Below are positions 32,474 through 52,496 of a stretch of DNA of 64,000 bases, piece after piece. The position numbers and the translations under genes are program-made. Under the pieces are notes generated by a model that saw only the letters and a list, made by a program, of their open reading frames with translations, did no database searches and was not told the DNA's origin. Every line of letters starts with the position of its first letter. The first letter of the stretch is position 1. Where the stretch lies: positions 8,166-72,165 of the forward strand of contig CAZYCL010000008.1 of assembly GCA_964645795.1 (NCBI GenBank), in the 5' to 3' direction. This stretch comes from an uncultured Planctomycetales bacterium. Its GTDB lineage: Bacteria > Omnitrophota > Gorgyraeia > Gygaellales > Profunditerraquicolaceae.

Positions 32474-33334
32474 TTAAAACTTAGAAGAGCTTATCCTACG
32501 GATAAGGATCATGCCTGCCACCTGCAGGGCAACGGCTACCAGCATCAGAAGACGGCCTTTTTCGGTATTAAGGAATATCTCAAAGTGCTCGGGGTTATTG
32601 GAGTAAACAAAATAGACAAAGACAAAAGGGAGTATGGACATGACTACGCCCTGCAGCTTTCCCTGCATGGTAAGGATGGCAATTTTGGCTTTAAGTTTTA
32701 TGTTATTGCGGATGGTGTCGGTGAGCCGGCTTAAAACCTTAGGCAGGTCTCCTCCGGACTCACGGGCAATAAGCAGCGCAGTCACCAAGAGGTTTACTTC
32801 CTCCAAGGGCAGGCGCTTCCTCATCCTCTTAAGCGACTCATCGAGACTGACCCCCCACTTGTTCTCCTTAAGCACCATCCCGAACTCAAGGGAAGCGGGA
32901 GGAGGCATCTCAGAGCATAACACCTCGATAGCCTGGATAAAGCTTAACCCCGCTTTTACCGAAGAGGAGAGGATCATGAGGCTGTCAACCATCTGGCCGC
33001 GGAACTTCTTGATGTGCCTGGCCCGGGCAAATTTAATGAGCATCCCGGGCAGGAAGAGGCCGAAGGCAAAGCCCACGATGATACCGATTATATGCTTTGA
33101 AATGAGGAACCCGGCTAAAGCAACGACAAGCGGCGAGAAGATAAGCATGAGCCGGTGGCGCTTGTCCTCGATGAAGATAAAAGACTCTTCCAGCCCCACG
33201 GAAAGGCGCTGTGCCCTTCTATTTTGAGACTCGGCGATCTTATTGAGTATGACCGGCAGGTAGGTATTAAGCAGATAAAAGCTAATGAGGGTTGCAGCGG
33301 CGAAAACAGCGAAAATTATTGCTACTATAAGCAT
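32474..33334 (-). CDS. tadB: Tad pilus assembly inner-membrane protein, TadB-like (T2SS-F domain)
   Basis: 286 aa with N- and C-terminal TM segments and a central T2SSF-type domain (…IARESGGDLPKVLSRL…). Confidence 0.65.
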   Translation of the reverse strand: MLIVAIIFAVFAAATLISFYLLNTYLPVILNKIAESQNRRAQRLSVGLEESFIFIEDKRHRLMLIFSPLVVALAGFLISKHIIGIIVGFAFGLFLPGMLIKFARARHIKKFRGQMVDSLMILSSSVKAGLSFIQAIEVLCSEMPPPASLEFGMVLKENKWGVSLDESLKRMRKRLPLEEVNLLVTALLIARESGGDLPKVLSRLTDTIRNNIKLKAKIAILTMQGKLQGVVMSILPFVFVYFVYSNNPEHFEIFLNTEKGRLLMLVAVALQVAGMILIRRISSSKF

Positions 33335-35752: not shown

Positions 35753-35777
35753 CTACCTGCTCCTTCTACGCTTGATA

Positions 35778-37292
35778 CTATTCAATAGTTTGCCATCTAC
35801 CGGTTTTGGAACGGCTATCGTAATTATCAACAAGATCATCATCGCTGACGCTATTAAGGGTCGTTGTTTGCCTGGGGTTTAGGCTGCCTTCAGCTTGCAT
35901 CGGCTCTAACTCAGGCCGATGAGGGCCTTCGGGATCTTCGCCGTCGCCGTCATCTTCTTCAGGCGGCTCTGGATCTCCTCCGGGATTCCAGTCGCCCTCC
36001 TCGTCATCTTCATTATCATAGCCTTCGGTATCCGGCTCATCCAGCATGTAATCATCCGCGTCAGTAGTAAGTTCAAAGATCAGGGGCGAGCAGCGCAGCT
36101 GGGACATGGCAGCCCCAAGGTAGAAGCCTCCCACTTCAGAGCACTGCACGCAGCATTTGGCCATGCGCTTAAGCTGCTTCCTTTCGCTTTTACCCTCCAG
36201 TTTGTCGCACTTGGTATCATCCTCAATATCCTTAGCGGTGCCGTAGGCAGAGTTGCAGAGCGCGGTGCATCTATTGTAGCGATCCTGATTCTCGACATTA
36301 TTCGGATCATCTTCATCCAAAAAGTCTCCGCAGGATTCCAGGCAGTCATCGCGGGCAGCCCGGCAATCCACGTTTTTGGGGTCATCTGAATCGTCGCCTA
36401 CGTCGCACAATAAGAAACACATATCCGCGGCGTAAAAGGCGATCTTCAGGGCGCCGCTCCTGCAGAGCGTATTCTTTTCGTTATCGTCGGCGCAGGCTTC
36501 CTGGGCAAAAGCAAAGGTCTCATTGGGATCAATAAAATCGCTGGGATCCTCGCAGCAGTTCTTTGAAACTACGCCTGTAGTATACAACGCAGAAGCCTGC
36601 CACAAAAGCCTCATCCCCATATCCCCAAGCCGATAAGCGGCTGCGATGAGGGTAAAGGCGGCTTTACCGCTTCGTTGCATGGCTTGACCAAAAAGATCTG
36701 CGCCTTGGTGCAAAAGATCCAGGCCTTCCCGGCCTAAAGTAGGAGGCTCGCCCGGAAGCGGCTCGCCTACATATATCTGTGATACGTTATACTCATACGC
36801 CTCCTCCCCCTTCTCTGTGCACATGCATATGGCAAAGGGGGCGCAGTTTGTATCAAAGTCGTCTGCGCTTCCGCAGGTCCCGTCATCGTTTGCCAGGGCC
36901 CATTCCATGCACTCTCTCCTCATATCCTCTTCAGTAGGACCGGGAGGCGCGCCGGTAACGGTTTCAGAGCTCTCTCCTCTGAACACCCAATTGTCGGTGA
37001 GGTCCAGAGGTTCGTAAGGACGCTGGGCAAAAGTAAGGTTAGCTTCATCAGTCCAGTTGGCCCTGATGCCTAACGGCGTTTTTTCCGTATTATACATCTG
37101 GTCAAGCTGTCCGGATTGGTCCTCGTAGCCGACCTTTCCGGCAATAAGGCGGCTTTCCTGATAGACGTGCTGCCTGCGGGCGTAGTTGGCGTCAAACCAG
37201 ATCCAAACCCTGACTATTCCCAGGGTCAAGGCAGAGACGGCAATAAAGGCGATGATGAAGTCCAGCGCTGACTGCGCTTTTCTATTTTCCAT
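35778..37292 (-). CDS. TadE-like pseudopilin-type protein with a large Cys-rich, highly acidic extracellular domain
   Basis: N-terminus RKAQSALDFIIAFIAVSALTL fits the TadE signal. There are about 30 cysteines, and the C-terminal tail is acidic (DEPDTEGYDNEDDEEGDWNPGGDPEPPEEDDGDGEDPEG). Confidence 0.5.
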   Translation of the reverse strand: MENRKAQSALDFIIAFIAVSALTLGIVRVWIWFDANYARRQHVYQESRLIAGKVGYEDQSGQLDQMYNTEKTPLGIRANWTDEANLTFAQRPYEPLDLTDNWVFRGESSETVTGAPPGPTEEDMRRECMEWALANDDGTCGSADDFDTNCAPFAICMCTEKGEEAYEYNVSQIYVGEPLPGEPPTLGREGLDLLHQGADLFGQAMQRSGKAAFTLIAAAYRLGDMGMRLLWQASALYTTGVVSKNCCEDPSDFIDPNETFAFAQEACADDNEKNTLCRSGALKIAFYAADMCFLLCDVGDDSDDPKNVDCRAARDDCLESCGDFLDEDDPNNVENQDRYNRCTALCNSAYGTAKDIEDDTKCDKLEGKSERKQLKRMAKCCVQCSEVGGFYLGAAMSQLRCSPLIFELTTDADDYMLDEPDTEGYDNEDDEEGDWNPGGDPEPPEEDDGDGEDPEGPHRPELEPMQAEGSLNPRQTTTLNSVSDDDLVDNYDSRSKTGRWQTIE

Positions 37293-37304
37293 AGTATTGC
37301 CCCC

Positions 37305-38069
37305 TTACTGGACAGGAGTGCTCCAGCTCCTGCTTCTTGAGATAACGTTGCCGACGCTTTCGGTATTATATTCGTAACGGTTCTCTTCGTTCAAAAGCAA
37401 GCCCTGACCACCTGTTTCGTAATTCGCGCGCTCTTCATATTGAGGGGCCGGGGTATAGTCATCCTCAGGATGCCTGCCCTCGGAGGTATCAAAACGGGTA
37501 TAAATAGTTGTGGCTAAAGTATCCTGCAGCTGCGAGGAGCGGGCGTTAGCAACTATACCGCCTGCCTCTCTTTTAGAAAACGAGGTGGAGTATGACTCAT
37601 CTCGCACGCTGGTTTCGCGATAGACGTTAACCGGCATCTTGGCTTCCTGCTTGCCGCCCATGGCATCGTAAATAACCTTGTCCTCGCGCGGAAGACCATC
37701 GTCCGGATCTCCTATCATCATCCCGTTTATCTCATAAAAGGCGAACGACTGTTCATCTTTGGCACCCTGCGCTCCGGGCTGACCCATCTGCCACATGACG
37801 CTGGCAGTAGAGCTAAGGCTGGTTGCCTGGCCCTGGCCCCAGCCGCCGGATAAGCTTGCCAGGCGGGTATCTTTTTTTAGGGAGTAGGAGACGCTGCTGT
37901 TTTTTTCGTAGGCCTTTTGCAGGGCCTTGCGGAAAGCTTCCATCTTGAGCTGATTCTGCATCTCAAGCCGCTGGCCGTAAGTGACGAGGGTGGAGAGCAC
38001 CAGGATCATGATCGTGCCGAATACGGCAAGCTCTATCGCTGCCTGGCCTCTATTCCTGCAAATTCTCAT
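37305..38069 (-). CDS. TadE/TadF-like pseudopilin
   Basis: MRICRNRGQAAIELAVFGTIMILVLSTLV carries the canonical TadE-family motif GQAAIE(L/F)A. Confidence 0.6.
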   Translation of the reverse strand: MRICRNRGQAAIELAVFGTIMILVLSTLVTYGQRLEMQNQLKMEAFRKALQKAYEKNSSVSYSLKKDTRLASLSGGWGQGQATSLSSTASVMWQMGQPGAQGAKDEQSFAFYEINGMMIGDPDDGLPREDKVIYDAMGGKQEAKMPVNVYRETSVRDESYSTSFSKREAGGIVANARSSQLQDTLATTIYTRFDTSEGRHPEDDYTPAPQYEERANYETGGQGLLLNEENRYEYNTESVGNVISRSRSWSTPVQ

Positions 38070-38111
38070 ACCACTCTCCTGCTTAATGTATATTTATAAA
38101 GACAAAACGCC

Positions 38112-38609
38112 TTACCAAAAACCCATACCCGACGGGGTTGGTATGTCCAGGCTCCAATCGAAGTCAAATAGCCACCCCAGATCTTCCAGTCCGGATAAGT
38201 CCAGGTCTAGCCCTAAACCGCTTCCTGTGTTGTTCTCGGTAACACCGATCGCGTTCAGCAATGCCTCTGCCCCTTCATCTACGCCGCCTGAAGTGCTGGT
38301 TTGGCTCTCTGAGCTGGAAGCTACGGTGCTTATGACTACCGAGGATTCTGTCCCGGAGTGATTTTCCTGAAGCCGGTAATTGGAGGCCTGCGTGCCGGTA
38401 GCATATACCCTTGAGGTCTCATCGCCCTTATAATCGTGCGGCTCCTGGCCCCAGCCTTCCCATAGAAGATAATTGGCGGTAGCGCCGATCTTCTTCATGT
38501 ATGCGCGCTTAAGCGGGTTGCCAAAAAGAGTAAAGAGGCTGAGTGCCACTCCGAGCGTCACTACCCAGCTTATCAGGCTGTTGGCCTTGTTTGAACTAGC
38601 GATCTTCAT
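38112..38609 (-). CDS. Membrane-anchored Ser/Thr-rich hypothetical protein in the pilin array
   Basis: ORF track. It has one N-terminal TM helix (SLISWVVTLGVALSLFTLF) and no prepilin motif. Confidence 0.5.
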   Translation of the reverse strand: MKIASSNKANSLISWVVTLGVALSLFTLFGNPLKRAYMKKIGATANYLLWEGWGQEPHDYKGDETSRVYATGTQASNYRLQENHSGTESSVVISTVASSSESQTSTSGGVDEGAEALLNAIGVTENNTGSGLGLDLDLSGLEDLGWLFDFDWSLDIPTPSGMGFW

Positions 38610-38914
38610 TGATAGGCCTCCACTCTCTCGCTCCTGGTCGTAGTCATAGAGCTGGAGCCGGTTGTTTGTGTCGCGCCGTCCGGCACGCCGGAGCCGCCTA
38701 CGCGGGTTGTGGAGCTGGAGGAGGTAGTGGTGATGATATTGGAGGTAGTGTGGCCGGGAGAGTACTGCGGGCCGACGTTATCAGCCTGCTCTTTAAGCCC
38801 TCCCTGATAGGCCCTTTTGATATAAAACTGCATCACCAGCAAAGCGCTGATGACCACCGCCACCAGTAGCGCATACTCGGGTATGCTTTGAGCTTTTCGC
38901 GACCAAAACCTCAC
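38606..38914 (-). CDS. Flp/TadE-like prepilin paralog (102 aa) with a Ser/Thr-rich tail
   Basis: MRFWSRKAQSIPEYALLVAVVISALLVMQ followed by ...TTTSSSSTTRVGGSG... Confidence 0.65.
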   Translation of the reverse strand: MRFWSRKAQSIPEYALLVAVVISALLVMQFYIKRAYQGGLKEQADNVGPQYSPGHTTSNIITTTSSSSTTRVGGSGVPDGATQTTGSSSMTTTRSERVEAYQ

Positions 38915-38949
38915 TACCTCCTCCTTGTTAGAGCAGCAAGCTAATATGC

Positions 38950-39366
38950 TTAAAAATCAGCCACGACATCAGTAGGCAAATCACCGGCTTCATAGCCTTC
39001 GGCTGCTGCGCCGTCCATCCTGGCATTGCTGGTCGTAGTGCGGGTGCCTCCTGAGCGCTCCGAATAAGTCAGAGCACCCTCAGGAGCTCCGATGGAAATG
39101 GAGCCGCTAAGCGAGCTGATATTTCCTGAACCTGAAGTAATGGTTTCCTGACCGGACAAAATCCTGCTTACCCTGGTTGTCGTGCCTGTCGCAGAGAAGC
39201 CTTCGCCCATCTGATCAGAAGACTCCTTCAGGTGTCCGGAGTAGCCTCTTTTGATAAAAGTCTGCATAAGTATAAGGGCAGCAATAACCACAGCCATGAG
39301 TATCACATACTCGATTATTGACTGGCCTTTTCTTTTACGAGAAAAAACCATATTCCACCTCCTCAT
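38950..39366 (-). CDS. Flp/TadE-like prepilin paralog (138 aa)
   Basis: MRRWNMVFSRKRKGQSIIEYVILMAVVIAALILMQ. Confidence 0.65.
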   Translation of the reverse strand: MRRWNMVFSRKRKGQSIIEYVILMAVVIAALILMQTFIKRGYSGHLKESSDQMGEGFSATGTTTRVSRILSGQETITSGSGNISSLSGSISIGAPEGALTYSERSGGTRTTTSNARMDGAAAEGYEAGDLPTDVVADF

Positions 39367-39374
39367 TCTGATTT

Positions 39375-39722
39375 CTATTCGACTTCCATGCCGCCGGTTG
39401 CGGTCTCCAAAGAAACGGAGTTGGTTATGGAAGTAGTCACCCCGCCTGCTGTTTCTCCACCGCCCTTCCTCATGGTCTTGGTATAGCTATCCGCGGTCAC
39501 GTTGGTAGCGGAACCCTCTGAACTGAAAAGAGTTACGCTTGCATCGTTAGTCAACGTATCGTTTCCCGCGTCCAACAAATAATTCACCGCCTGCTTGCTT
39601 TTTGTACGCATACCACCCTTAAGCATCATCTGCATGACTCCCGCAGCAACCGCAGCCACCAGGGCGATGACAATCGCGTACTCGGCAACTGATTGCGCTT
39701 TCCTGGATAACCTCATAAACAC
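39375..39722 (-). CDS. Flp/TadE-like prepilin paralog (115 aa)
   Basis: MFMRLSRKAQSVAEYAIVIALVAAVAAGVMQ. Confidence 0.65.
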   Translation of the reverse strand: MFMRLSRKAQSVAEYAIVIALVAAVAAGVMQMMLKGGMRTKSKQAVNYLLDAGNDTLTNDASVTLFSSEGSATNVTADSYTKTMRKGGGETAGGVTTSITNSVSLETATGGMEVE

Positions 39723-39805
39723 CTCCTTAAAAAATAATTCGTATGACGACAGCGCTTCACAAAACCCTATATCTGTGATTGGCTGTTAACCTCCTCACCC
39801 CGATC

Positions 39806-40006
39806 TTATTGAAATACGCCGGTGTTCAGATTGCCCGCAACGTTGGTTACGGCATCGGTCACTGAATCATAGGACGTCTCAAGCTTGTTCTTCATGCCGC
39901 CCTGACCGCCTGCTCCCAATAAAACAACGATTATAGCCATGATGACCACCGCTAAAAGCAGGGTGTACTCCAGGATGCTCTGGCCCTTTCTCTGTTTTTT
40001 CCTCAT
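39806..40006 (-). CDS. Flp/TadE-like prepilin paralog (66 aa)
   Basis: MRKKQRKGQSILEYTLLLAVVIMAIIVVLLG. Confidence 0.65.
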   Translation of the reverse strand: MRKKQRKGQSILEYTLLLAVVIMAIIVVLLGAGGQGGMKNKLETSYDSVTDAVTNVAGNLNTGVFQ

Positions 40007-40060
40007 TCTCTCACCTCCCTTTTTTTAAAAATTTTATACCCTCAACAACTGCTCCATATC

Positions 40061-40465
40061 TTATTGGTAGTGCATTTCTTGCGCGTGCCCGCCACCGCCA
40101 CCACCTCCGCCGCCCGTGCTGCCGCCGGGGTTATGTATGGGGTCGGGATCGTCATATTCGACATAATCCGGCTCGCCCTGGTGCGGATTAGTCTGCACCA
40201 AAGGATTATTGCCTACCCCGGGAGAGAAAGACGTGGCGCTATTACCTCCGGGAGGAGCGGCAAGCGTGTGAGCGTTAGTCTGCCCCACTGCGTCGCTGCG
40301 CCTGTAACTTAACTCCTCTTGTATCAACTTTAACTTGGCGTTTACCGAACGGTAGAGATACCTGTGGGTAAGGGCAATGGCGCCGGCGACAACCATGAAA
40401 AGTATGACGTATTCGATTATGCTCTGCGCTTTACCGCTGGCTCTGGGCATTTTGCCCTCCTGCAA
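40061..40465 (-). CDS. Flp/TadE-like prepilin paralog (134 aa) with a poly-Gly C-terminus
   Basis: MPRASGKAQSIIEYVILFMVVAGAIAL followed by ...GGSTGGGGGGGGGHAQEMHYQ. Confidence 0.65.
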   Translation of the reverse strand: MQEGKMPRASGKAQSIIEYVILFMVVAGAIALTHRYLYRSVNAKLKLIQEELSYRRSDAVGQTNAHTLAAPPGGNSATSFSPGVGNNPLVQTNPHQGEPDYVEYDDPDPIHNPGGSTGGGGGGGGGHAQEMHYQ

Positions 40466-41089: not shown

Positions 41090-43405
41090 ATGGGCGTAAT
41101 TCATAAATTAAAGCCGGAAATCCTGGATTTTATCCTGGAAACAAAGAAATCCCAGCCGCTAATAAGCTGCCGAAGCATGGCTGCGGAGATCGAAAAAAAG
41201 TTCTCTTTAAAGGTATCCAAATCCAGCATCAACGCTGTATTTAAGAGCGCGAGCCTCAGCCTTCCCGTAGGCAGAAGATCTATAAAGCAGAAGCCGCAAG
41301 CAGATAAACCCCCCTTGCTCCTGGAAAAGCTTACAGAAACACCTCAGCCTGTTGAATGCCGTCCGGATATCTTGCCATCTCTGGCTAAGGCCCCTTTTGC
41401 CCGGGAAATAATCGCTTCCGCGCAAAAAGAAGTAGACTCAAGCCTTTTGCCGGGTTACGCGAGCCTGCAGGAAGAAGCTGCTCCTGAGGCAGCGGCGCAG
41501 CCCGAGCCTGTTATTGAGCCTTCGATTCAGCCGGTTGAGTCGCCAGTTCAACCACCGCCAGAGACAACAGCTGTTACGCAGCCTCAAGCGGAAGCGGAAA
41601 AGGCAGAACCTGAAGCTGCAAAGGAGGCCATTGAAGAAACGCCTGAGAATCTTAAAGAGGCCACTCGGTCTCCAGAAAAGACAGAACCGCCTGTTGTAAA
41701 ACAAACCCCTGAAGAACAAACTGCTCAAGAGGCGCTGAAACCGGCCGCAGAAGATCAAACCGCTGAGAAGGCTAAACCAGCTGAGCAGATGCCTGAGGCT
41801 CTAGAGCCTGCGAAAGAGGCAACAACGCCTCCCGCGCCGCAGGCGCAGAAGCCAGCAGCGGCGCAACCCGTATTTGAGCCGGAAAAAGAAGCTACTGAAA
41901 TACAGGCTGCGCAAGAACCTGCTCAGCATGTCAAAAAGCCTTTACCAAAAGAGCCGGTCCCGACCGAAGAAAAACAACCCGCAGAAGTAAGCCTGCAGAA
42001 GCCTGCGCCGCTTCCTGAGCATCCGGTTGCAGAACCGCGAGAGATAAAAATAAAAGAGCCTTTGGAAACCCCTGCGGCCAAGACCGCAGGGACCACTCGC
42101 ACTGGCGCGCAAAAAACCAGAGGGCTGGTCATATTAAAAGCCGCAGACAACCTCCTTGGGGGCTCGCGCAGCCTGGCTGAGCTTTTCCGCAATCGAGTCG
42201 ATATCCAGGATAAGAGATTGAATGCCAAGATCGAGGCTTTGGTCTATGGCTCTCTTTTTCAAGAACTGGCCAGCGACGCCCTGCCTACTGATGAGATAAT
42301 AACCGCGGATGAAGCGGTGGAGGTATTGGACAAGCTACGTTCCTCTCCTAATCTGATACAGGAAAGCCTGAGGCTTCTCTTCAACGGCATCGAGGATGTG
42401 CGCTGTATAAAATTCATCCTCTCCGAAGGAAACCAGTTCTTTATCGACGGGCAGTTTCGCAGCGTCTGGTCTTCGCAGCACACCCCGCACAGCTTCTCAA
42501 ACGCCCTGGCAAACACCAAGCTTACTCTCAATAAGTACCTGTATGAGAACAACCCGCTCATTATCTTCTGCGCCCCAGGCAGGGACGTGCCTGCGCAAGA
42601 GCTCTTTGACATGATCGCAAGCCTTAACTACTCTGCCAAACCCATAAAGAAGATCGGGCTATGCGGACACAGGGATAACGACTTGGAGGTCCTGGCATTC
42701 GACCAGAGCTGCAGGCATTACTTTATCTTCGGGATGTTCCCCTGGCAGTATGTAAAGTTCCGCCGGGTAAAGAAGCTCGGAGAGTTTAAAACGGTAACTC
42801 TGGGGTATCCTAAGGGAGAGTGCCTGCTTGCCAAGGCCCAGGTGGAGTTGATCGAACCCTCCCTGCAGCAGTCGGTAGTCCTTAACGGCTGCGCGTTCAA
42901 GACGGACCCCTCAGCCAAGATAAAAGTGGTGATGTTAAGCAATATGCCGGAGGAGATGTTCACTCTGGAGGAGATGGCGGACGCTTACTTTAACCGCTGG
43001 ATAAACACCGAAGAAGGATTCCAGGATTTCAGCAGGAAGCTTGAGCTATTTACTTATACCGCGGGCTGCGAATATCACTTTAGCGCAGACAATCTGAATT
43101 TAAACCCCGGCTCGCCTTACACCGAATTTAAATCCCTGTTTACCAATTATGCCAGGGCAGCCGACCTTTACGCGCGCTGGAGCTTTTTCCCGCAAGGGTA
43201 TGAAAAACTGGATTTCCTGGAAGTTAAAAGGCGCATCTACAGTTTGGACGTGGAAGTAAAAAGGGAGCAAAGATACGCGGAGTATATGTTTGAAAGGCCT
43301 GCCGAGGCAAGCTACGCCAAAGACCTCGAGTATATCTGCCGCAGGTTAAATGAAAGAGAGATCGTTTCCGCCGACGGAAGGCGCCTGTGGTTCTCTATTA
43401 AATAA
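41090..43405 (+). CDS. Hypothetical 771-aa protein with three parts: N-terminal HTH-like domain, about 250-aa Pro/Glu/Ala/Lys-rich low-complexity linker, and a C-terminal ~400-aa domain of unknown function. Possible regulator.
   Basis: ORF track. N-terminus is KLKPEILDFILETKKSQPLISCRSMAAEIEKKFSLKVSKSSINAVFK. The linker is full of PEPxxE/KPAAE repeats. Divergently transcribed from the pilin array. Confidence 0.6.
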   Translation: MGVIHKLKPEILDFILETKKSQPLISCRSMAAEIEKKFSLKVSKSSINAVFKSASLSLPVGRRSIKQKPQADKPPLLLEKLTETPQPVECRPDILPSLAKAPFAREIIASAQKEVDSSLLPGYASLQEEAAPEAAAQPEPVIEPSIQPVESPVQPPPETTAVTQPQAEAEKAEPEAAKEAIEETPENLKEATRSPEKTEPPVVKQTPEEQTAQEALKPAAEDQTAEKAKPAEQMPEALEPAKEATTPPAPQAQKPAAAQPVFEPEKEATEIQAAQEPAQHVKKPLPKEPVPTEEKQPAEVSLQKPAPLPEHPVAEPREIKIKEPLETPAAKTAGTTRTGAQKTRGLVILKAADNLLGGSRSLAELFRNRVDIQDKRLNAKIEALVYGSLFQELASDALPTDEIITADEAVEVLDKLRSSPNLIQESLRLLFNGIEDVRCIKFILSEGNQFFIDGQFRSVWSSQHTPHSFSNALANTKLTLNKYLYENNPLIIFCAPGRDVPAQELFDMIASLNYSAKPIKKIGLCGHRDNDLEVLAFDQSCRHYFIFGMFPWQYVKFRRVKKLGEFKTVTLGYPKGECLLAKAQVELIEPSLQQSVVLNGCAFKTDPSAKIKVVMLSNMPEEMFTLEEMADAYFNRWINTEEGFQDFSRKLELFTYTAGCEYHFSADNLNLNPGSPYTEFKSLFTNYARAADLYARWSFFPQGYEKLDFLEVKRRIYSLDVEVKREQRYAEYMFERPAEASYAKDLEYICRRLNEREIVSADGRRLWFSIK

Positions 43406-43414
43406 CATCCCCGG

Positions 43415-43756
43415 TCATTGCAGCGCAAGCACATCCCCCAAAACTATCCCGTTTCTTGCGATGCTGCCAACAGGCAGCTCAACCGCGAAATAGGCCCTGT
43501 AAAAAATAGCGCTAAGCTGCCATGGCTTAAGCTGCGGGCACAACCCCACTACCCTGCCTTTCCTGTCGGAAAAAACCACATCTATGGGGAAACGCATGAA
43601 AAAGGTGTGCACCGAGTTGCATGGCCTGATAACCAAACATTGCCCGTCTGCAAGACCATCCCTGCCCAATAAACCCTTGAGCCTTTTCAAAAGGCTTCCG
43701 GCAACCTCGGCTTCTTCAGAGATAATATTGTTTTTGCTCAGATTTATTAATTTCAT
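43415..43756 (-). CDS. DUF192 (COG1430) family protein
   Basis: ...LKGLLGRDGLADGQCLVIRPCNSVHTFFMRFPIDVVFSDRKGRVVGL...AVELPVGS fits the DUF192 conserved pattern. Confidence 0.6.
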   Translation of the reverse strand: MKLINLSKNNIISEEAEVAGSLLKRLKGLLGRDGLADGQCLVIRPCNSVHTFFMRFPIDVVFSDRKGRVVGLCPQLKPWQLSAIFYRAYFAVELPVGSIARNGIVLGDVLALQ

Positions 43757-43901: not shown

Positions 43902-46046
43902 TTACTTCTTCTTAAACAACTCATCCGGGAGCGGTATGCCACGCAACCTGATATCTTCGGCAAAGGTGGGGATATAACCGGTAGGCAGGTAGTTACCGAG
44001 GACTTTTTTGTTCTCGTCAAGTCCCGTCTGCTTGAAAGCGAATACGTCATGCAGCCCGATATGGGTCTCATCGAGCATCCCGGCTATCTCGGTTATCTGC
44101 ATTACCCGGCGGCTGCCGTCGGAAAGGCGGGCGGTATGCACGATGATATCGACCGCGGCGGCGATCATCTCGCGGATAGAGCGCAAAGGCAGCTCTATTC
44201 CCGACATCAGTATCATGGAATCAAGGCGCGCCAGCACATCGTGGGTGGAGTTGGCATGAATTGTGGTCATGGAGCCGTCATGGCCGGTGTTCATGGCCTG
44301 GAGCATATCAAGGCTTTCTACGCCGCGGCACTCGCCGATGATTATCCTGTCCGGACGCATCCTTAAGGTGTTCCTGAAAAGATCCTTGATGGTAATGGAA
44401 CCCTTTCCTTCGATGTTCGGAGGACGCGACTCAAGCCTTATCCAGTGCACCTGATTAAGCTTTAACTCCGCGGCATCTTCGATAGTGATAATACGGTCGT
44501 CTTCCGGTATGAAGTTAGAGAGGACGTTAAGCACGGTGGTCTTGCCTGAACCGGTGCCGCCGGAGACGATGATGTTCTTGCGCGAGACCACGCAGGCGCG
44601 CAGGAAATCGACCATCGCCTGGCTCAATGACTTAAGCTCCACCAGCTCCTCTGCCTTGAAACTTTCCTTGCGGAATTTTCGTATCGTTACCGCCGGCCCT
44701 GTAAGGGACAGCGGCGGTATTATGGCGTTGACGCGGCTGCCGTCGTTAAGACGGGCGTCCACCATCGGCATGGACTCATCAATCCTTCTGCCGATAGGGG
44801 CGATGATCCTTTCGATAATGCGTTTTACCTGTTCATTAGAGACGAACTTTTTATTGGTCAATATAATCTTTCCATCGCGCTCGATGTAGACTTCGTCCTT
44901 ATTGTTGACCATGATATCGCTTATGCCCTGATCGGCGAGAAGGTCTTCCAGGGGCCCGAGCCCCAGGGCCTCATCCAGTATCTCCTTGATGATGGTCTTT
45001 CTTTCGTCGGCGCTGGAGAACAGGCCTCCTGCCTCCTCGGCCAGGATGTTGGTGACCACGATCTGCGCCCTTTCGCGCAATTCCCTGGCCTTCTCGACAT
45101 CGCTAAAGGCGTTGGAGTCCAGCCTTTTAATGTTTAGTTCATCGATCAGGCGGTTATGGACTTTACGTTTGAGTGAGGTAAGGGCATCTACTTCCTCAAC
45201 CGCCGCTCCCTTTGCCATCCGGCCCAGGCCCTGCTTTCGCCAGAAATCCCCTGCCTTGCCGGCTCCGGCAGAAGAACCCCTCTCTATCTGCTGGTGGTCG
45301 GCAAAAATGGTCTTGTCGTCGATAAGCAAGGCGGCGAGCTTGCTGATGGTCTGGGTTATCTTGGAGCGCGGGGCATCTGCCAGCACCGGGATACCGCGGT
45401 TTACCGCCTGGCCTACGATGCGGCCCTCGGAAGGTATCTGGACGAGTATGTCTATGGGCAGGGTCGCCTTGATCTCCTGCCAGCTTATGCTGGATACCGA
45501 TTCGGCGCGGTTTAAGATTATGCGCATCATCTTCAAGGGAAAATTCAGGGACTGCAGGGTATCCAGGACCCAGCGGGTCTGATAGACCGAAAGGACGTCG
45601 GGGGTGATCACCAGCAAAATAAGGTGCGCTTGATCGAGGATGCTGATGAGGGTGTCGCTGAAGCTCTGTCCTGCGTCTATGACGATATAATCATACTTCT
45701 CATCGAGGCTGGTGAAAAGATTGGTAACGGCAAGCTGGTCTATCTGGCAGGACTGCTGCGGGACCATGGTTGCACTTATGAAATCTAACCCAAGCTTGGT
45801 CTTGGTCAGGATCACTTCGTTTCTTAAGGTATCGACGTTGGCCGTAGCCAGGGTCTGCAGGTCTGCCAGGGACTTCTGAACGTTGATGTTAAGCATGCGC
45901 GACAAATCCCGGGGGGCCTGGAGGTCAAAATCGATAAGGCAGACGCGCTGCTGGTGGTGCGCGGCGAGGGCGGTGGCGAGGTTAGCGGCTATAAGGGTCT
46001 TACCCGCTCCTCCTTTTGCGCCAAAGAGAACGACAATCTTTGCCAT
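43902..46046 (-). CDS. Fused TadZ/CpaE-like (MinD/ParA-family) N-terminal domain plus TadA/CpaF secretion ATPase C-terminal domain
   Basis: N-terminus VVLFGAKGGAGKTLIAANLATAL carries the ParA/MinD deviant Walker A. C-terminal half has GGTGSGKTT (Walker A), IIIGECRG, and His/Asp boxes typical of CpaF/VirB11-type ATPases. 714 aa. Confidence 0.75.
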   Translation of the reverse strand: MAKIVVLFGAKGGAGKTLIAANLATALAAHHQQRVCLIDFDLQAPRDLSRMLNINVQKSLADLQTLATANVDTLRNEVILTKTKLGLDFISATMVPQQSCQIDQLAVTNLFTSLDEKYDYIVIDAGQSFSDTLISILDQAHLILLVITPDVLSVYQTRWVLDTLQSLNFPLKMMRIILNRAESVSSISWQEIKATLPIDILVQIPSEGRIVGQAVNRGIPVLADAPRSKITQTISKLAALLIDDKTIFADHQQIERGSSAGAGKAGDFWRKQGLGRMAKGAAVEEVDALTSLKRKVHNRLIDELNIKRLDSNAFSDVEKARELRERAQIVVTNILAEEAGGLFSSADERKTIIKEILDEALGLGPLEDLLADQGISDIMVNNKDEVYIERDGKIILTNKKFVSNEQVKRIIERIIAPIGRRIDESMPMVDARLNDGSRVNAIIPPLSLTGPAVTIRKFRKESFKAEELVELKSLSQAMVDFLRACVVSRKNIIVSGGTGSGKTTVLNVLSNFIPEDDRIITIEDAAELKLNQVHWIRLESRPPNIEGKGSITIKDLFRNTLRMRPDRIIIGECRGVESLDMLQAMNTGHDGSMTTIHANSTHDVLARLDSMILMSGIELPLRSIREMIAAAVDIIVHTARLSDGSRRVMQITEIAGMLDETHIGLHDVFAFKQTGLDENKKVLGNYLPTGYIPTFAEDIRLRGIPLPDELFKKK

Positions 46047-46047
46047 A

Positions 46048-47649
46048 TTAATCGAGTTGGTATGATACGGGCACTATTACCCAGAGCTCATCCTTCTGGA
46101 TAGAGGGCGGCAGCGGCGGGTAAGAGGATATTTCTTTGGCTGCCCGGAGAGCGTTGTCATCGAGCATCCTGTAGCCGGAAGTCTGGTCAACCTTGGCATC
46201 CAGCAACTCGCCTCTAAAAGAAAGGTGCAGGTTAAGCTTTACCGTGCCCTGGAAACCAGCTTTCTTGGCAGAGGCCGGATAGGCTATTCTCTCGATGATG
46301 CGCTTCTGGATAAGGGAGGCGTACTTCTCTTCCGGGGTCAGCGGCTCTTTGGGCTCGACGACGGAAACGACTTTTTCAGAAAGGATCTTGGTTGCGGATT
46401 TTGCCTGTTTTATGATCTTTGGCGTAAGCAGTATGAAAAGCTCGGTATCGCCCCTTTCTCCGGTGCCGCCGCCTTCCTTGGTTTCTTTTTTACGGAAGAG
46501 CGCTCCGATAACAGGCACATCGCCCAAAAACGGCACCTTGCGCAAGTCTTCCCCGGTCTTTTCCTTCATCAGCCCGCCGATGGCCATGGCCTGGCCGTCT
46601 TCAAGATAAAGCTCGGTAGAGGCGTTTCTTTTGCTTAAAGGATAGGCCTTGGCAGTAGGGGCGTTAGCCGCGCCTATTGTTTCAGCCTCGCCGACCTCGC
46701 TTACTTCTATGTTAAGAGCAAGCTTTATACGCTCTTCCTCGGTGACCGTAGGTTTGATCTTGAGTTTTATGCCGAACTCCTTATACTCGACCTCGGTACC
46801 CTCGCCTCCGGTTACCGCGACCGCAGTAGTAAATATAGGCTTCTCCCCTCCGACGATAAGTTCGGCTTCCTTGCCGCTCTGGCAGGCCAGCCTTGGACGC
46901 GAAAGAACCTTTGCTTTGCCTTCCTGAATAAGAGCGTCTATCTTAAAAGCAAAAGGCACAACAGTGCCGCCTGTGCCGCGGTATAAGTCCACGACCCTGA
47001 AAAGACTGCTCCAATTAGTGCCTCTTGCCGCCATGAGCGCCGGGTTAAGCGTAGCCCCTGTCTCGGTAATATCAACCGAACCGGGGAAGGTAAATCCGAG
47101 GGTTTTGGTAGCATCTTTATTAAGCTCGAGTATCTGGACATCGATCTCAACCGCCGCCTCTTCTTCCTTGACCTTGATAAGGTCGACGATCTTGCTCCTT
47201 AGTTCACCCAAAACGACATTTATCCGCTCCCTGTCCTGGGCGGTCTTTACCGAACCCATGAGAAAGACCTTTTCTTCGTCCTCTTCCGGCTGGGTATAGA
47301 CGTCGGGAAGGCTCAATTTGGATAAAAGCTTATCTACGCGCTTCTTGATGATATCCACGTCCTCGGAAAATACTTTTATCAGGTAAGACTGCTCTCCATA
47401 GTCATCCCAGATGACCATAGTGGTCGAGCCTCTTGTCTTGGGGGTGAGGGTCAGTTCTTTCTTGGTGGCCTTGCTTATATCGACTACGGAAGGATTTCCC
47501 AGGACCACGCGGGTGGGGTTGCTCATCGACAGCCGGCGCGTTTCACCCAGATACAGCTTAAGCACCTCTTCGGCCAGCGCGATGTTGTTAAGGCACAAAA
47601 AGCCGAGGAGCGTAAAAAACGGGACAAAAAACCTCATTAGTTTAATCAT
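46048..47649 (-). CDS. CpaC/RcpA-type secretin with a C-terminal TonB_C-like domain
   Basis: Signal peptide. The secretin core is ...VPFLGDVPVIGALFRKKE...ELFILLTPKII. The C-terminal ~90 aa are ...IAYPASAKKAGFQGTVKLNLHLSFRGELLDAKVDQTSGYRMLDDNALRAAKEISSYPPLP, a TonB C-terminal-type fold signature. Confidence 0.7.
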   Translation of the reverse strand: MIKLMRFFVPFFTLLGFLCLNNIALAEEVLKLYLGETRRLSMSNPTRVVLGNPSVVDISKATKKELTLTPKTRGSTTMVIWDDYGEQSYLIKVFSEDVDIIKKRVDKLLSKLSLPDVYTQPEEDEEKVFLMGSVKTAQDRERINVVLGELRSKIVDLIKVKEEEAAVEIDVQILELNKDATKTLGFTFPGSVDITETGATLNPALMAARGTNWSSLFRVVDLYRGTGGTVVPFAFKIDALIQEGKAKVLSRPRLACQSGKEAELIVGGEKPIFTTAVAVTGGEGTEVEYKEFGIKLKIKPTVTEEERIKLALNIEVSEVGEAETIGAANAPTAKAYPLSKRNASTELYLEDGQAMAIGGLMKEKTGEDLRKVPFLGDVPVIGALFRKKETKEGGGTGERGDTELFILLTPKIIKQAKSATKILSEKVVSVVEPKEPLTPEEKYASLIQKRIIERIAYPASAKKAGFQGTVKLNLHLSFRGELLDAKVDQTSGYRMLDDNALRAAKEISSYPPLPPSIQKDELWVIVPVSYQLD

Positions 47650-47653
47650 TCTC

Positions 47654-48565
47654 TTAATAATCCCTTAATGGGACCTTTTCCCGGCCGCTTGAGCCGCGGT
47701 AAATCTCCAGATAACCGCTAGGGGTCTCTTCGTCGTCTTCTTCTTCTTTCTTCTCTTCGAATGCCTGAGGCATAAGCGCTCTCAATATCGTCTCCCAGCT
47801 GACCGGCTGCAGAGGCTGAAGCTGGGAGTCGGCAGGGGAGCGCATAATGAACTTGATCTTAGCCTGCTCCTGGACAAAGGAAATAAGGTTTGCCTCCGGA
47901 GGGGTAAGGGCTACGGTTATGATCGATGAGGCAGCAGCGTCTTTCTTCTCCTGCTGCTTGGGATCCTGCGCTGAAGGCGGCGCGGGAGGAGCGGTGTCCC
48001 TGCCCACTGCCACCACCAAAACATTCTGAAGCAGGGGAACAGAGGTCAACTGGGATGTCGGTTTGCCGTCCGGAGCGGTCGCAGGCAGAGGGATCATCGC
48101 TATCACGTCAACGTAATTACCGGGGATGATCAGCCCCGCCAAAGAAGAGATATCGTCGACTTTTATGGTGACCGCTCTTTTTCCTACGGGAGTAGCCATG
48201 GCCAAAGACATGCCCTGGGCCTCGCGCTTGCTGGAAAGCCTGTCCAGGGTTATCTGCTGGCCCTTGGGTATCAGGGCGACTGCCGTCATGTCGATTATTC
48301 TTTCGGGAGAGGTCACTGCCTGCGGCTGGACAAACTGGCTAGGCACTGGCATGGCCTCGATCATCGAGGCGTCAACGACTGAGCCGGGCGAGATGTCTTT
48401 CTTTGCCACCATCACCGCCACTTGGCTGGTCTGCATCTTCTTGATCTGCTTATTGGCCTGTTCTACGATGAACTGCCTCTGCTGCTGGATATAGGCATAG
48501 ACGGCGAATACCGCCAGGAATGCTATGGCCACACCCAGGATAAGCACCAGCTGCTGTCTTTGCAT
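47654..48565 (-). CDS. cpaB: CpaB-type Flp pilus assembly protein (SAF domain)
   Basis: N-terminal TM followed by ...VAVMVAKKDISPGSVVDASMIEAMPVP. The C-terminus is rich in Ala/Pro/Glu. Confidence 0.6.
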   Translation of the reverse strand: MQRQQLVLILGVAIAFLAVFAVYAYIQQQRQFIVEQANKQIKKMQTSQVAVMVAKKDISPGSVVDASMIEAMPVPSQFVQPQAVTSPERIIDMTAVALIPKGQQITLDRLSSKREAQGMSLAMATPVGKRAVTIKVDDISSLAGLIIPGNYVDVIAMIPLPATAPDGKPTSQLTSVPLLQNVLVVAVGRDTAPPAPPSAQDPKQQEKKDAAASSIITVALTPPEANLISFVQEQAKIKFIMRSPADSQLQPLQPVSWETILRALMPQAFEEKKEEEDDEETPSGYLEIYRGSSGREKVPLRDY

Positions 48566-49515
48566 TATTTGACTTCGCTTTCGTAAACTTCGATCTTGGC
48601 GTCGCGGGAGAGGTTGCCGATTATCTCCTCGACCTTCTGCTGCTGCTTTAGGAAAGTAAGCCCCTTCTTTATGTCGTCCCAGAGCTCTTTAAGGGTCTTG
48701 GCTTCTCCGCCGCGCTTGGCTTCCAATTTCAGGACATAGTAGCCGTCGGGGCCTTTGAATATATTGCTGATCTTACCTACATCGAGCGTCCCGGAAAAGG
48801 CAACGCTGTCAAACTTCGCAAACTTGGCTCCCGGGCTGATAAAACCGAGGTCTCCGCCGTCCTTGGCGCTGGGGGCAATGGACCTGTCTCTGGCTACCGC
48901 AGAAAAATCAGCGCCCTGCATCAGCTGGATGACGATATCCTTGGCGTCCGATTCATTGCGGACCACGATCTCGCGGACCTGCCTTTCTTCCGGCTCCCTC
49001 AACTCTTCTTTATAGGTATTGTAATACTCCTCGATGTCCTTGGAGCTGACATCCACCTGGGCGGTCTCCTGGCGCACCAGGTCAACCACCATAAGGTCCT
49101 GTTTGGTCTTCTCCAGGGCCCTCAGGATATCTTCCTGCCGGTCAAGGCCGCGGTCAAGCGCCGCCTGATATAGAAGGAGCTGGCGCACCTTCTGGTTCTT
49201 TAAATAATCGAGCTTCTGCTCGCGTGTCGTTATCTTGGCTTCGGGCCTGTCCGCGGGGACCATGGAGTTGAAAGTCTCTATCTCCTGGTTCAGGTCTTCC
49301 AGGCTTATCGGCATATTGTTGACCCTGGCGACTATCGGGCCCTTTACCGGCAGCGACGGGTACTCGCCCTTCGAGGAGACCTGGAGGGCGCCCTTGGAAG
49401 ACGTTTTCTTGCCGCCTAAATTTATGAGATTATCACAACCTGATATTAAAAACGCTGCGACTAAAATAAGTGCCGCGCCTAAAGTCGTGCTTTTCATCTG
49501 GTGCTCTCCTTTCAA
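48565..49515 (-). CDS. SurA/PrsA-like parvulin-type peptidyl-prolyl isomerase lipoprotein
   Basis: Lipobox LISGC. The PpiC domain is ...GADFSAVARDRSIAPSAKDGGDLGFISPGAKFAKFDSVAFSGTLDVGKISNIFKGPDGYYVLKLE. Confidence 0.65.
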   Translation of the reverse strand: MKGEHQMKSTTLGAALILVAAFLISGCDNLINLGGKKTSSKGALQVSSKGEYPSLPVKGPIVARVNNMPISLEDLNQEIETFNSMVPADRPEAKITTREQKLDYLKNQKVRQLLLYQAALDRGLDRQEDILRALEKTKQDLMVVDLVRQETAQVDVSSKDIEEYYNTYKEELREPEERQVREIVVRNESDAKDIVIQLMQGADFSAVARDRSIAPSAKDGGDLGFISPGAKFAKFDSVAFSGTLDVGKISNIFKGPDGYYVLKLEAKRGGEAKTLKELWDDIKKGLTFLKQQQKVEEIIGNLSRDAKIEVYESEVK

Positions 49516-49842: not shown

Positions 49843-51663
49843 TTATTTTAATTTTTTATAAAGTATCTCTATCCCGAAACCCTCGCGCTTAAAAGGCTCT
49901 TTACCGAAACGCTGCAAAAGAAGATAGTTATCCTTTATCCACCGGTAGAGCTTTCCGCCGTAGGCTTGGCAAAAATAATTATACCCGTGCGCCTCTATGG
50001 GGTAATCGATGACCACGATGTAATCCGGCCCGGAGCTGATAAATGCCGCCAGGATCGCAGCTTCACCGTAGATATTCAACTCCGCGGGCAAAAACGTGAG
50101 GTGGCCGGTGGGGTTAGAGCGGCGGCTAAGATAATTGAACATTGCGCCCTCCGGGAAAACTACCAAGCCCTGGCCTTCCCTGATCAGCTTGGCCGCAGTA
50201 TTCAGCGCGGAATTGACCAGCGCCCCTCTGGATATATCCCCATAATCAAGTATGAGGTCTGGGCCCTTGCCAACCGCGTAAGTCTTGGACAGGTAAAACC
50301 GGCAACTTCTAATGACAAAGCCGGAGGAGACAACTACCAGGAGGGCCAGACAAAGGATGCGCGCAAGGCGATAATTGCCGCGCGCCTTCTGTATGCCCAA
50401 AGGAAGGTAATGCGTAAAGGCGGCAGCGGCAACAAGGGCGGCAGGCATAGCCAGGGCAAACCCTATATGGAAGATATTGGCGTAAAAGATTATTTTAGCC
50501 AAAAGGAGCAGGGCAAATAATGCCATAACCGGCAGGGGCAGGAGCGCCTTTTGCCCTGCAGCGTCCATTCTTAAGCGCCAAAGCTTCAGGCTGTAACCGG
50601 CCAGCAGCGCTGCCATGATCAGCGGCAGCGGCATGCCGGCATAGATCAAGATATCTTTAGCCAGATAAAACCAGCCCACAAGGAGAAGAAGCAAAAACAA
50701 AGAACGGGCCAGATAAGCCTGCTTGTCCGCTGCGGTCAAGGGCCGCGCCCCGGGATTTACCCAAAAACAGCTAAGGCGGATAATCAAGGCTGTGCCGATA
50801 TACCAGCAACTCAAAAACAGGATCCGTATGATATTATCTTGAAAATGAGTAAGCCCCATTACATCCCTGTAGAACGGGCCGGAAGAGACGGAGCGCAGAA
50901 AAAGGTAGCTATAGGGCTGGGTCAGGAATTTTACGCTATCCATAAAGCTTGCGCGCAAACAAAATAACCCGACGCAGATAAATAGCGGCGTCAGGAGGCC
51001 GCAAAAGAATACCGCAGAGGCAGGCGCTATGCGTTTTACGCTCATCCTCTCAAAATAAAAAAGCAGGCAGAGCCCTGCGACAACGGCCGCAATGAGCGCC
51101 AGGAATATTTCCGGCTTGGTAAGGAATGCCAGGCCGCAAAGAATCCCGAGTAAGGCAATACGGTATACTGTCATTTTTCTGCATAAAAGAAGAAAAACGT
51201 ATATGGCGGCAAACGAGATAAGGATGCCGTGAGTGAGGGTATAGGTATAGGGGCAGACGTAATTGTAGTTGGCTATCCCGACATACTGCGAGAAGGCAAA
51301 AAGCGTCAAAAACAAAAGCAGGCAGGCGTGAGCGCTAACCCTGTCCAGAGATCGCGAGAAAAACTTAAATATGAGTACGGACAAGGCCACGATCAAAAAG
51401 ACGTTAAACCAGGCAAGGGTCAGGATGCCGGTGCCAAAAATTTTGAACACCAGGGCATGCATATACGCGGAGAGCGGGCCGAAGAGATAGGCGATATCCC
51501 TGTAGAGGAGCTTTCCGCAGTTGATCTGCCAGGGGATATAGGCCTCCCTGCCGAAATCCGTTATGATATCCGGCCACCTCTGCCAGCTTAAGGCCAGCAT
51601 AAAGATGCCGACAGCCAGGGGCATGAGTAATGCCGCGTATCTCTGCAGCTTGCTCTTATTCAT
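49843..51663 (-). CDS. Polytopic membrane protein (at least 12 TM helices) with a C-terminal soluble domain; possible GT-C-like glycosyltransferase or polymerase
   Basis: ORF track, 606 aa. Topology only; no motif I can name with confidence. Confidence 0.5.
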   Translation of the reverse strand: MNKSKLQRYAALLMPLAVGIFMLALSWQRWPDIITDFGREAYIPWQINCGKLLYRDIAYLFGPLSAYMHALVFKIFGTGILTLAWFNVFLIVALSVLIFKFFSRSLDRVSAHACLLLFLTLFAFSQYVGIANYNYVCPYTYTLTHGILISFAAIYVFLLLCRKMTVYRIALLGILCGLAFLTKPEIFLALIAAVVAGLCLLFYFERMSVKRIAPASAVFFCGLLTPLFICVGLFCLRASFMDSVKFLTQPYSYLFLRSVSSGPFYRDVMGLTHFQDNIIRILFLSCWYIGTALIIRLSCFWVNPGARPLTAADKQAYLARSLFLLLLLVGWFYLAKDILIYAGMPLPLIMAALLAGYSLKLWRLRMDAAGQKALLPLPVMALFALLLLAKIIFYANIFHIGFALAMPAALVAAAAFTHYLPLGIQKARGNYRLARILCLALLVVVSSGFVIRSCRFYLSKTYAVGKGPDLILDYGDISRGALVNSALNTAAKLIREGQGLVVFPEGAMFNYLSRRSNPTGHLTFLPAELNIYGEAAILAAFISSGPDYIVVIDYPIEAHGYNYFCQAYGGKLYRWIKDNYLLLQRFGKEPFKREGFGIEILYKKLK

Positions 51664-52496
51664 CGGTCATGAGAATCGGGGTTTTCCAGCACAAATACCG
51701 GCTCGGCAGCAGCCAGCGGCAGATCAAGCATGCTTTCTTCAAAACCGAACCTGTCCAATATTTTCCAGCCTTCCAAAAGCAGGGGCAGGCGCAGCTTTCC
51801 GTAAATCCGCCTGCTGTTCCATATGAGGGTATCTTTGCCGACGGGCACGGATAAAAAAAGCAGGCCGCCGGGCTTTATCATCAGCCTGGTCTTCTCCATC
51901 GCCTTCAGGTCGCCTAAAGGGTCGAGCTTTTCCCCGTACCTGCCCAAGCCGTCGTGCTCAAAAGAAGAGATGGAAAATGCCGCTTCGAACATCAGCGGAT
52001 CCCTGGCATACTCTTCTGTTGTCAAAAACCTTATGCGCGGGTCGCTGTTGATGATCCTGTTGTAATCTACGGTCGTGGGTATGCCTTTATAAAAGAGGCA
52101 GATGCTTTCATACCAGGGCGTAACCGAACCGATCACAACGACGGATTTGCCCCGGATGCCGTACTTATCCAGGGCCTGATAAAGGTAGCTGTCGGTTGCT
52201 CCGTAATAGAAGCGCTCTTTGTTTTCGATCTTACTCAGGTAATAATCGGTCCTCTGGGGGGTAAATACTATAGGGTCGTCCGGCCGGCGCGTGCCGTCCT
52301 CATACCAATACCGCAGCCTCACTTTGCCGCCCATAAGATACTGGCTAAACAGCCCCGGAGGGCAAAACAGGGGCGCAGGCTTCCTAATCCTGAGTATCGA
52401 TTTTATCAGGCTCCTTAAAACGACGCGCAGCATCTTGAACAATCGGGGCATATTAGAAAGGAATCTTATATCTCCGGCGGGATTATCGTTTTTCAT
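51660..52496 (-). CDS. DUF268-like putative SAM-dependent methyltransferase
   Basis: ...GKSVVVIGSVTPWYESICLFYKGIPTTVDYN...SISSFEHDGLGRYGEKLDPLGDLKAM... resembles the DUF268 / class I MTase fold. Overlaps the upstream gene by 4 nt (ATGA). Confidence 0.45.
   Translation of the reverse strand: MKNDNPAGDIRFLSNMPRLFKMLRVVLRSLIKSILRIRKPAPLFCPPGLFSQYLMGGKVRLRYWYEDGTRRPDDPIVFTPQRTDYYLSKIENKERFYYGATDSYLYQALDKYGIRGKSVVVIGSVTPWYESICLFYKGIPTTVDYNRIINSDPRIRFLTTEEYARDPLMFEAAFSISSFEHDGLGRYGEKLDPLGDLKAMEKTRLMIKPGGLLFLSVPVGKDTLIWNSRRIYGKLRLPLLLEGWKILDRFGFEESMLDLPLAAAEPVFVLENPDSHDR

Follow-up and report, generated by a model that had tools for sequence, protein, structure and literature searches.

In model organisms, the CpaF/TadA secretion ATPase of the Tad (type IVc) pilus and the MinD/ParA-fold ATPase CpaE/TadZ are products of separate genes. 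CpaE/TadZ is typified by an N-terminal receiver-like domain, and cryo-electron tomography of Caulobacter led to a model in which six CpaE dimers form a ring around the CpaF hexamer; in this model a C-terminal amphipathic helix keeps CpaE at the membrane, and receiver domains connect the dimers. A different arrangement is described for Bdellovibrio bacteriovorus, in which a TadZ region that lacks the atypical receiver domain (ARD) is joined by a flexible linker to TadA, giving the TadZA protein of a tad locus (bioRxiv 10.64898/2026.07.08.737194). The TadZ and linker part of TadZA, for which a Walker-A-like consensus K/RGGxGxS/T is given, binds the polarity hub RomR in POLAR assays, TadZA shifts dynamically from pole to pole, and CRISPR interference (CRISPRi) repression of tadZA-tadB lowered predator proliferation and prey invasion (bioRxiv 10.64898/2026.07.08.737194). 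This preprint was the one paper on a TadZ-TadA fusion found in the literature, and it presents the design as atypical of the predator (bioRxiv 10.64898/2026.07.08.737194). Furthermore, a 2023 survey of Omnitrophota reported Tad systems whose TadB and TadC group with those of Bdellovibrionales; a fusion is unmentioned there. Here, we describe a 714-residue protein encoded in a 64,000-nucleotide stretch of DNA (hereafter the window) from an Omnitrophota bacterium filed as an uncultured Planctomycetales bacterium (GenBank assembly GCA_964645795.1, contig CAZYCL010000008.1, positions 8,166 to 72,165 of the forward strand). In all likelihood it is the cytoplasmic motor of a Tad pilus in which a receiver-less CpaE/TadZ ATPase domain has been fused to the N-terminus of CpaF/TadA.

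The fusion gene is one unbroken open reading frame (ORF) of 714 codons on the minus strand, which starts at ATG and is free of internal stops, and it encodes an N-terminal ATPase module of 245 residues (the N-module), a linker of 42 and a CpaF module of 427 (Table 1). Pfam assigns ParA/CbiA/AAA_31 to residues 3-240 and T2SSE to residues 361-640, while NCBIfam places MinD-like matches at residues 2-257 and TadA-family and VirB11-type ATPase matches at residues 323-652; as the E-values run from 1e-65 to 1e-117, the domain matches are not due to chance. An initial annotation, made from the letters and reading frames of the window, had proposed a TadZ(CpaE)-TadA(CpaF) fusion on a single polypeptide, with a MinD/ParA-type ATPase-like region in the N-terminal ~270 residues and a complete CpaF/TadA in the C-terminal ~400. 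Both domain types are present in that order, close to those lengths, and the motifs it quoted (KGGAGKT, GGTGSGKTT and IIIGECRG) lie within residues 10-17, at residues 496-504 and within residues 567-575, respectively. The fusion is a real gene, and its architecture is of an already known kind rather than new to the literature.

By sequence, the C-terminal module has the make-up of a CpaF/TadA secretion ATPase. Its best solved relatives are structures of Caulobacter CpaF (9E24, E=6e-117; 8RKD, E=1e-116), followed at a distance by archaeal GspE2/FlaI (1e-40) and VirB11 (1e-33), and Pfam T2SSE matches it with E=1e-64. Because CpaF is aligned from its residue 77 onwards, the match includes the CpaF-type helical bundle. 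The window protein thus shares with Caulobacter CpaF (9E24, 8RKD, 8RJF) the three-helix bundle, both ATPase domains and all four motifs, but the N-terminal ~76 residues of CpaF are replaced by the 245-residue ATPase module and linker. Across 36 orthologues there is hardly any variation in the motor Walker A, Asp box, Walker B and His box. The best NCBIfam model for the motor was TIGR03819, a TadA family of a different, conjugal-transfer-associated subfamily, at 331 bits against a cutoff of 373; the general CpaF equivalog was absent from the NCBIfam matches listed.

Throughout the phylum Omnitrophota, this gene is normally found fused. Independent assemblies of four sequencing runs all contain the exact 714-residue protein, and their DNA is 100% identical to the window, without gaps, over the gene and 300 nt to either side. 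Scanning the GTDB species, each represented by one genome, gave 373 loci with a relative of the N-module, and the best 80 of these, to which all counts out of 80 below refer, covered only Omnitrophota or mislabelled metagenome-assembled genomes (MAGs): all are labelled Omnitrophota or carry default MAG names ('uncultured Planctomycetales', 'bacterium'). The junction between the modules (45.19-45.31 kb) is read through in all four assemblies and in 80/80 related loci, and a stop codon in the linker was found in 0/80. A motor module follows the N-module in 79 loci; in the remaining one a motor-module match was not detected. Among 72 complete ORFs, lengths of 700-746 residues are found in 70; an exception of 684 residues lies on a contig that begins inside the gene. 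Similarly, a search of 5.8 billion protein clusters listed >115 clusters of 714-725 residues with 61-65% identity at ~100% coverage, all with both ParA-type and T2SSE Pfam domains and, where the source is named, mostly from Omnitrophota/Omnitrophica. The initial annotation had called for such a survey and had described the two halves as normally separate genes, which holds for model organisms but not for Omnitrophota, where fusion is the rule, nor for Bdellovibrio, where it has already been reported. In a single locus (L047, CAZOSW010000026.1), the fused ORF ends early, at 588 residues, inside the motor module, which may reflect a pseudogene or an assembly error.

Assignment of the N-module to CpaE/TadZ relies on its nearest relatives and on gene context, not on its motif. 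A deviant Walker A of the KGGAGKT type is generic to all MinD/ParA ATPases, so this motif and the MinD fold, which had been taken as the hallmark of TadZ, are not diagnostic. The N-module profile was searched exhaustively against 1.84 billion cluster representatives, and the 150 best were analysed. After the Omnitrophota fusions, as fragments and full copies, the best matches are proteins of ~380-420 residues in which the match starts near residue 140, and in 93 of the 150 representatives the ATPase domain is preceded by an N-terminal extension of 100 residues or more. The extended relatives examined combine Response_reg with a ParA-type domain, and two of them are named 'pilus assembly protein CpaE' by the Joint Genome Institute (JGI). 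Two such relatives with REC and ParA domains could be placed on contigs, where tadA is the next gene downstream of them and the order is Flp-(A24 peptidase)-TadE-TadG-RcpC-[REC+ParA]-T2SSE-T2SSF-T2SSF. Judged in this way, by search ranking and gene context, the N-module appears to be the ATPase domain of a CpaE/TadZ-type protein that was joined to tadA and lost its receiver domain. The TadZ/CpaE label of the initial annotation consequently holds for the ATPase half only. No receiver (ARD/REC) domain stands in front of it: the ATPase domain begins at residue 2-3, the N-terminus MAKxIV is conserved among orthologues and only 9 in-frame codons separate the preceding stop from the ATG.

The nucleotide-binding motifs of both modules are computed to be intact. 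An AlphaFold2 (AF2) model of residues 1-282 has a confident MinD-like fold to about residue 245 (predicted template modelling score, pTM, 0.80), followed by a low-confidence tail. Within the N-module, K11, G12, G13, G15, D39, D124 and G126 do not vary among the 36 orthologues, and conservation of K16 is at least 90%. The Walker A reads KGGxGK[ST] in 74/80 loci and KGGxGRT in 5/80, and the former is also kept in 77/93 of the nearest relatives with CpaE architecture. The KGGAGKT of the window fits the loose TadZ consensus K/RGGxGxS/T, yet keeps the canonical P-loop lysine, as most of those relatives do, so this trait has no power to discriminate. With CpaE/TadZ as a separate protein (Caulobacter CpaE, Aggregatibacter TadZ and E. 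rectale TadZ, 3FKQ) the N-module shares the MinD/ParA fold, the signature lysine and the adjoining tadA, but it differs in lacking the N-terminal ARD/REC domain and in having a linker motif where a C-terminal amphipathic helix would be expected; such a helix was not detected in the window protein.

The linker of ~40 residues is predicted to be flexible, with predicted local distance difference test scores (pLDDT) of 41-50 in both AF2 models (residues 1-282 and full length). It is the least conserved part of the protein (column identity 0.54-0.60 versus 0.85-0.98 in the motor core), and its length is nearly constant. Within it lies a conserved motif with the consensus g-D/E-F-W-x-K-Q-G-L (the FW motif), which AF2 models as a short helix from residue 266/267 to 271. 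Its Trp is invariant and its Phe almost so: W269 is invariant in both alignments made, F268 is invariant in one and at least 90% conserved in the other, and G273 is nearly invariant. The motif lies ~20 residues past the ATPase domain, where the tails of related CpaE proteins have basic and hydrophobic stretches, so by position it could be the amphipathic membrane helix of CpaE, kept in the fusion. Its hydrophobic moment, which is low (mean 0.21), lends this no support, and the maximum within the linker is no higher than in shuffled controls. The FW motif is a candidate docking site for a separate partner. It is absent from the Elusimicrobiota-type fusions examined.

Similar fusions occur outside Omnitrophota as well. 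With profiles of more divergent fusions, hundreds of proteins of ~700-770 residues with ParA and T2SSE domains were recovered, labelled Elusimicrobiota, Elusimicrobiales or Endomicrobiales, with single proteins from Myxococcota and Bacillota; one fusion cluster has a member labelled Candidatus Sericytochromatia, and one of the fusions (P0174) lies in a tad locus. Their Walker A ranges from canonical (KGGVGKT) through TadZ-like (KGGVGTS, KGGVGQT) to degenerate (AKSGSGTT, REGLGQA, KEGINQS). A neighbour-joining tree of N-modules places the Omnitrophota fusions in one clade and the Elusimicrobiota type apart, although its deep order, with no bootstrap and no outgroup, is not to be trusted. Bdellovibrio TadZA was not among the best 120 matches of any of three homology searches. 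Compared by description rather than by sequence, it resembles the window protein in its receiver-less TadZ region, flexible linker and TadA, in the same order and in a tad locus. The two differ in the Walker A (K/RGGxGxS/T in TadZA, canonical KGGxGK[ST] in Omnitrophota) and in the conserved FW motif that the Omnitrophota linker has of its own, and a RomR partner and polar dynamics are known for Bdellovibrio only.

These searches also returned other assemblies of the same modules. One protein of 853 residues (P0393) is a triple REC-ParA-T2SSE fusion, that is, a full-length CpaE with its receiver domain joined to CpaF. Three others (P0002, P0003 and P0004) carry three tandem CpaF/TadA modules per chain of ~1150 residues, and two (P0291 and P0296) carry two in chains of ~780-870 residues; a similar tandem build is suggested by length and high scores only for P0407 (~1150 residues) and P0408-P0421 (~780-870 residues). 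Such tandem-module proteins would be covalent trimers or dimers of the motor subunit.

By analogy with Caulobacter, the C-terminal module would hexamerise on the TadB/TadC platform and drive pilin polymerisation and probably depolymerisation, as CpaF does. The N-module would bind ATP and, as in the Caulobacter model of CpaE, form sandwich dimers through the signature Lys11 at the motor's periphery, close to the membrane. The covalent tether would fix the ratio of N-module to motor at 1:1, giving six N-modules and at most three dimers per hexamer, which is half of the six dimers in the Caulobacter model, and the receiver domains that could link these dimers or read a polar landmark are absent. 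If the fusion has a localisation function, as its counterparts suggest, it must, lacking a receiver domain, take any positional cue from a distinct partner bound to the N-module and linker; RomR in Bdellovibrio would be comparable.

Several points weigh against a CpaE/TadZ origin and role of the N-module. The N-module lacks the receiver domain that is regarded as typical of TadZ. To our knowledge, E. rectale TadZ (3FKQ) is the only solved TadZ, and it matches the N-module profile weakly (E=5e-7, rank ~20, behind MinD, FleN and Soj) and is not in the best 50 Foldseek matches of the N-module. Dimerisation, motor contact and the localisation role are extrapolated from other organisms, and the full-length AF2 model (pTM 0.43) is uninformative on contacts between the modules. 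Moreover, because the Walker A is degenerate in several other lineages, ATP turnover by the N-module may be inessential to the fused design.

The best-surviving alternative, itself unlikely, is that receiver-less CpaE-CpaF fusions from Omnitrophota, Elusimicrobiota, MAGs labelled Sericytochromatia or Myxococcota, and Bdellovibrio mark a widespread and distinct Tad subtype, in which the accessory ATPase acts in cis as a nucleotide-gated regulator of the motor and not as a positioning factor. If so, a trio of N-module dimers on each hexamer could set or sense the two-fold asymmetry of the motor and gate the switch between extension and retraction, and the FW motif would serve as a docking element. 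The Omnitrophota version would have parts of its own, namely a secretin with a TonB_C domain, a peptidyl-prolyl isomerase, a DUF192 protein and a 771-residue protein, and the adjoining giant ORFs would fit attachment to or attack on host cells.

A poorer alternative is that a MinD/FlhG/ParA-type domain was recruited independently, which would make the label of a TadZ-TadA fusion wrong. The best NCBIfam models for the N-module are minD_arch and minD_bact (~85 bits, far under their cutoffs), ahead of CpaE_hom_Actino (47 bits), and the closest PDB entry is 3EA0 (profile E=2e-24, Foldseek TM 0.77/0.89, 27% identity), followed by MinD, Soj and FleN. The entry 3EA0, a structural-genomics 'ParA family ATPase' of Chlorobium tepidum, is the best match in both sequence and structure, but it is a stand-alone 245-residue chain with an atypical Walker A, KGGDGGS. 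These rankings, in which MinD, FleN and Soj precede E. rectale TadZ, together with a canonical rather than atypical TadZ Walker A and the missing receiver domain, would suit a MinD-like origin. However, REC+ParA CpaE proteins behave alike in NCBIfam (minD models at 81-108 bits; CpaE_hom_Actino, where listed, at 55-66 bits; all below cutoff), so a MinD-first ranking in NCBIfam is uninformative on origin. The exhaustive search, moreover, found the closest non-fused relatives to be overwhelmingly of CpaE architecture and not MinD-sized, most of them with the same canonical Walker A, and the two checked lie directly upstream of tadA. An identification of the N-module as MinD from the NCBIfam and PDB rankings was dropped on these grounds, and independent recruitment is improbable.

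It is also quite doubtful that the N-module is a degenerate scaffold, independent of nucleotide, adding no more than bulk or a binding surface to the motor and lacking any ATP-dependent cycle of dimerisation. The loss of the Walker A in related fusions does indicate that the fused design tolerates the loss of nucleotide binding. In Omnitrophota, by contrast, the nucleotide-site residues are invariant or nearly so, which points to selection for nucleotide binding. Lastly, a sequencing or assembly error that merged adjacent cpaE and cpaF into one frame, as a single indel could in principle do given the usual adjacency of tadZ and tadA in unfused loci, is effectively ruled out by the four identical assemblies, the >115 full-length clusters, the uninterrupted junction at about 45.1-45.3 kb for which the initial annotation had sought a check, and a linker of kept length with an invariant Trp preceded by an almost invariant Phe.

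With a CpaE/TadZ ATPase domain fused to the motor as the preferred reading, the TadZA design described as atypical becomes the standard Tad motor throughout an uncultured phylum and a common design in one or more others. The fusions form a large natural sequence set on the role of CpaE/TadZ once bound to the motor, in which the Walker A is canonical, atypical or degenerate and the receiver domain is present or absent. For annotation, tools that need a separate tadZ gene could score such systems as TadZ-less. For the biology of Omnitrophota, the fusion adds detail to Tad systems already proposed for host attachment and is not a new kind of machine.

Table 1. Features of the fusion gene and its surroundings (window coordinates; residue numbers refer to the 714-residue protein unless another protein is named).
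Feature	Position	Strand	Basis
Whole fusion gene: TadZ-type ATPase module, linker and CpaF/TadA module	43902..46046	-	714 residues + stop
N-module, MinD/ParA-fold ATPase domain of CpaE/TadZ type (putative), residues 1-245	45312..46046	-	Pfam, AF2, relatives
Deviant Walker A AKGGAGKT, residues 10-17 (signature Lys11, P-loop Lys16)	45996..46019	-	Alignment
Switch-I stretch IDFDL	45921..45935	-	Alignment
N-module Walker B YIVIDAG, residues 120-126	45669..45689	-	Alignment
Linker between modules, residues 246-287	45186..45311	-	AF2 pLDDT, alignment
Conserved linker motif GDFWRKQGL, residues 266-274	45225..45251	-	Alignments, AF2
CpaF/TadA module (predicted), residues 288-714	43905..45185	-	PDB CpaF match, Pfam T2SSE, AF2
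Three-helix bundle, residues 288-361, before the N- and C-terminal ATPase domains	44964..45185	-	AF2 helices
Motor Walker A GGTGSGKTT, residues 496-504	44535..44561	-	Motif scan
Asp box, residues 519-528	44463..44492	-	Motif scan
Motor Walker B RIIIGECRG, residues 567-575	44322..44348	-	Motif scan
His box HDGSMTTIHAN, residues 589-599	44250..44282	-	Motif scan
Secretin (RcpA/CpaC-like) with C-terminal TonB_C (its residues 455-532)	46048..47649	-	Pfam, NCBIfam
CpaB/RcpC	47654..48565	-	TIGR03177 142 bits vs cutoff 71; Pfam RcpC
PPIC-type peptidyl-prolyl isomerase (SurA/PrsA-like), head of conserved block	48565..49515	-	Pfam
PMT_2-type membrane glycosyltransferase (606 residues) and DUF268 protein	49843..52496	-	
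DUF192 protein directly downstream of the fusion	43415..43756	-	Pfam
771-residue protein	41090..43405	+	Weak HTH_32 match only
Pilin-like array and large pseudopilin-like (TadE/G-like) proteins	34421..40465	-	Translations
Array of five small pilin-like genes	38606..40465	-	N-terminal motif
ORF with Tad (TadE/G-like) domain	34421..35752	-	Pfam
T2SSF platform genes (TadB/TadC-like), n=2	32474..33334, 31580..32467	-	Pfam
2294-residue ORF	22411..29295	-	
Giant ORF, single open frame of >=6914 codons, past the window start	1..20742	-	

The fusion gene sits in a minus-strand tad cluster with CpaB/RcpC, a secretin, two T2SSF genes and pilin-like genes (Table 1). The stop codon of the secretin gene lies 1 nt ahead of the fusion ATG, and a secretin with TonB_C is directly upstream of the fusion in 78/80 loci; its TonB_C domain may serve as an anchor to peptidoglycan or in place of a pilotin. 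CpaB/RcpC is kept in 72/80 loci and the isomerase in 70/80, and DUF192 directly follows the fusion in 70/80. The 771-residue protein, whose N-terminal half is rich in Pro, Glu and Ala, has homologues after DUF192 in 61/80 loci, mostly on the strand of the fusion. The full order of isomerase, CpaB, secretin with TonB_C, fusion, DUF192 and 771-residue ORF is found in 48/80 loci, and most others have shorter runs of it. Because the 771-residue gene of the window is opposite in strand to the fusion, a local inversion that splits its tad cluster is suggested. A DUF192 gene also follows TadB/TadC in an unfused tad locus (L087, 10571..10924).

The products of the small pilin-like genes have an N-terminal K(A/G)QSxxEY ahead of a hydrophobic helix, and several have tails rich in Ser, Thr and Gly. 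By this N-terminal motif they look like Flp/class-III pilins; the three scanned had no Pfam match. A second ParA-like or TadA-like gene was not found in the window, and no prepilin peptidase was among the window ORFs scanned with Pfam.

The tad cluster has further unusual neighbours. The giant ORF lies downstream of it on the same strand, and giant ORFs with pilus or secretion genes at their flanks have been reported from Omnitrophota. Between the giant ORF and the platform genes is the 2294-residue ORF, which had no Pfam match at E<=0.01. Just upstream of the tad block, the PMT_2-type glycosyltransferase and DUF268 genes are found as a pair at the same position on independently assembled contigs (L001 and L003), and this pair may serve glycosylation of pilins or of the cell surface.

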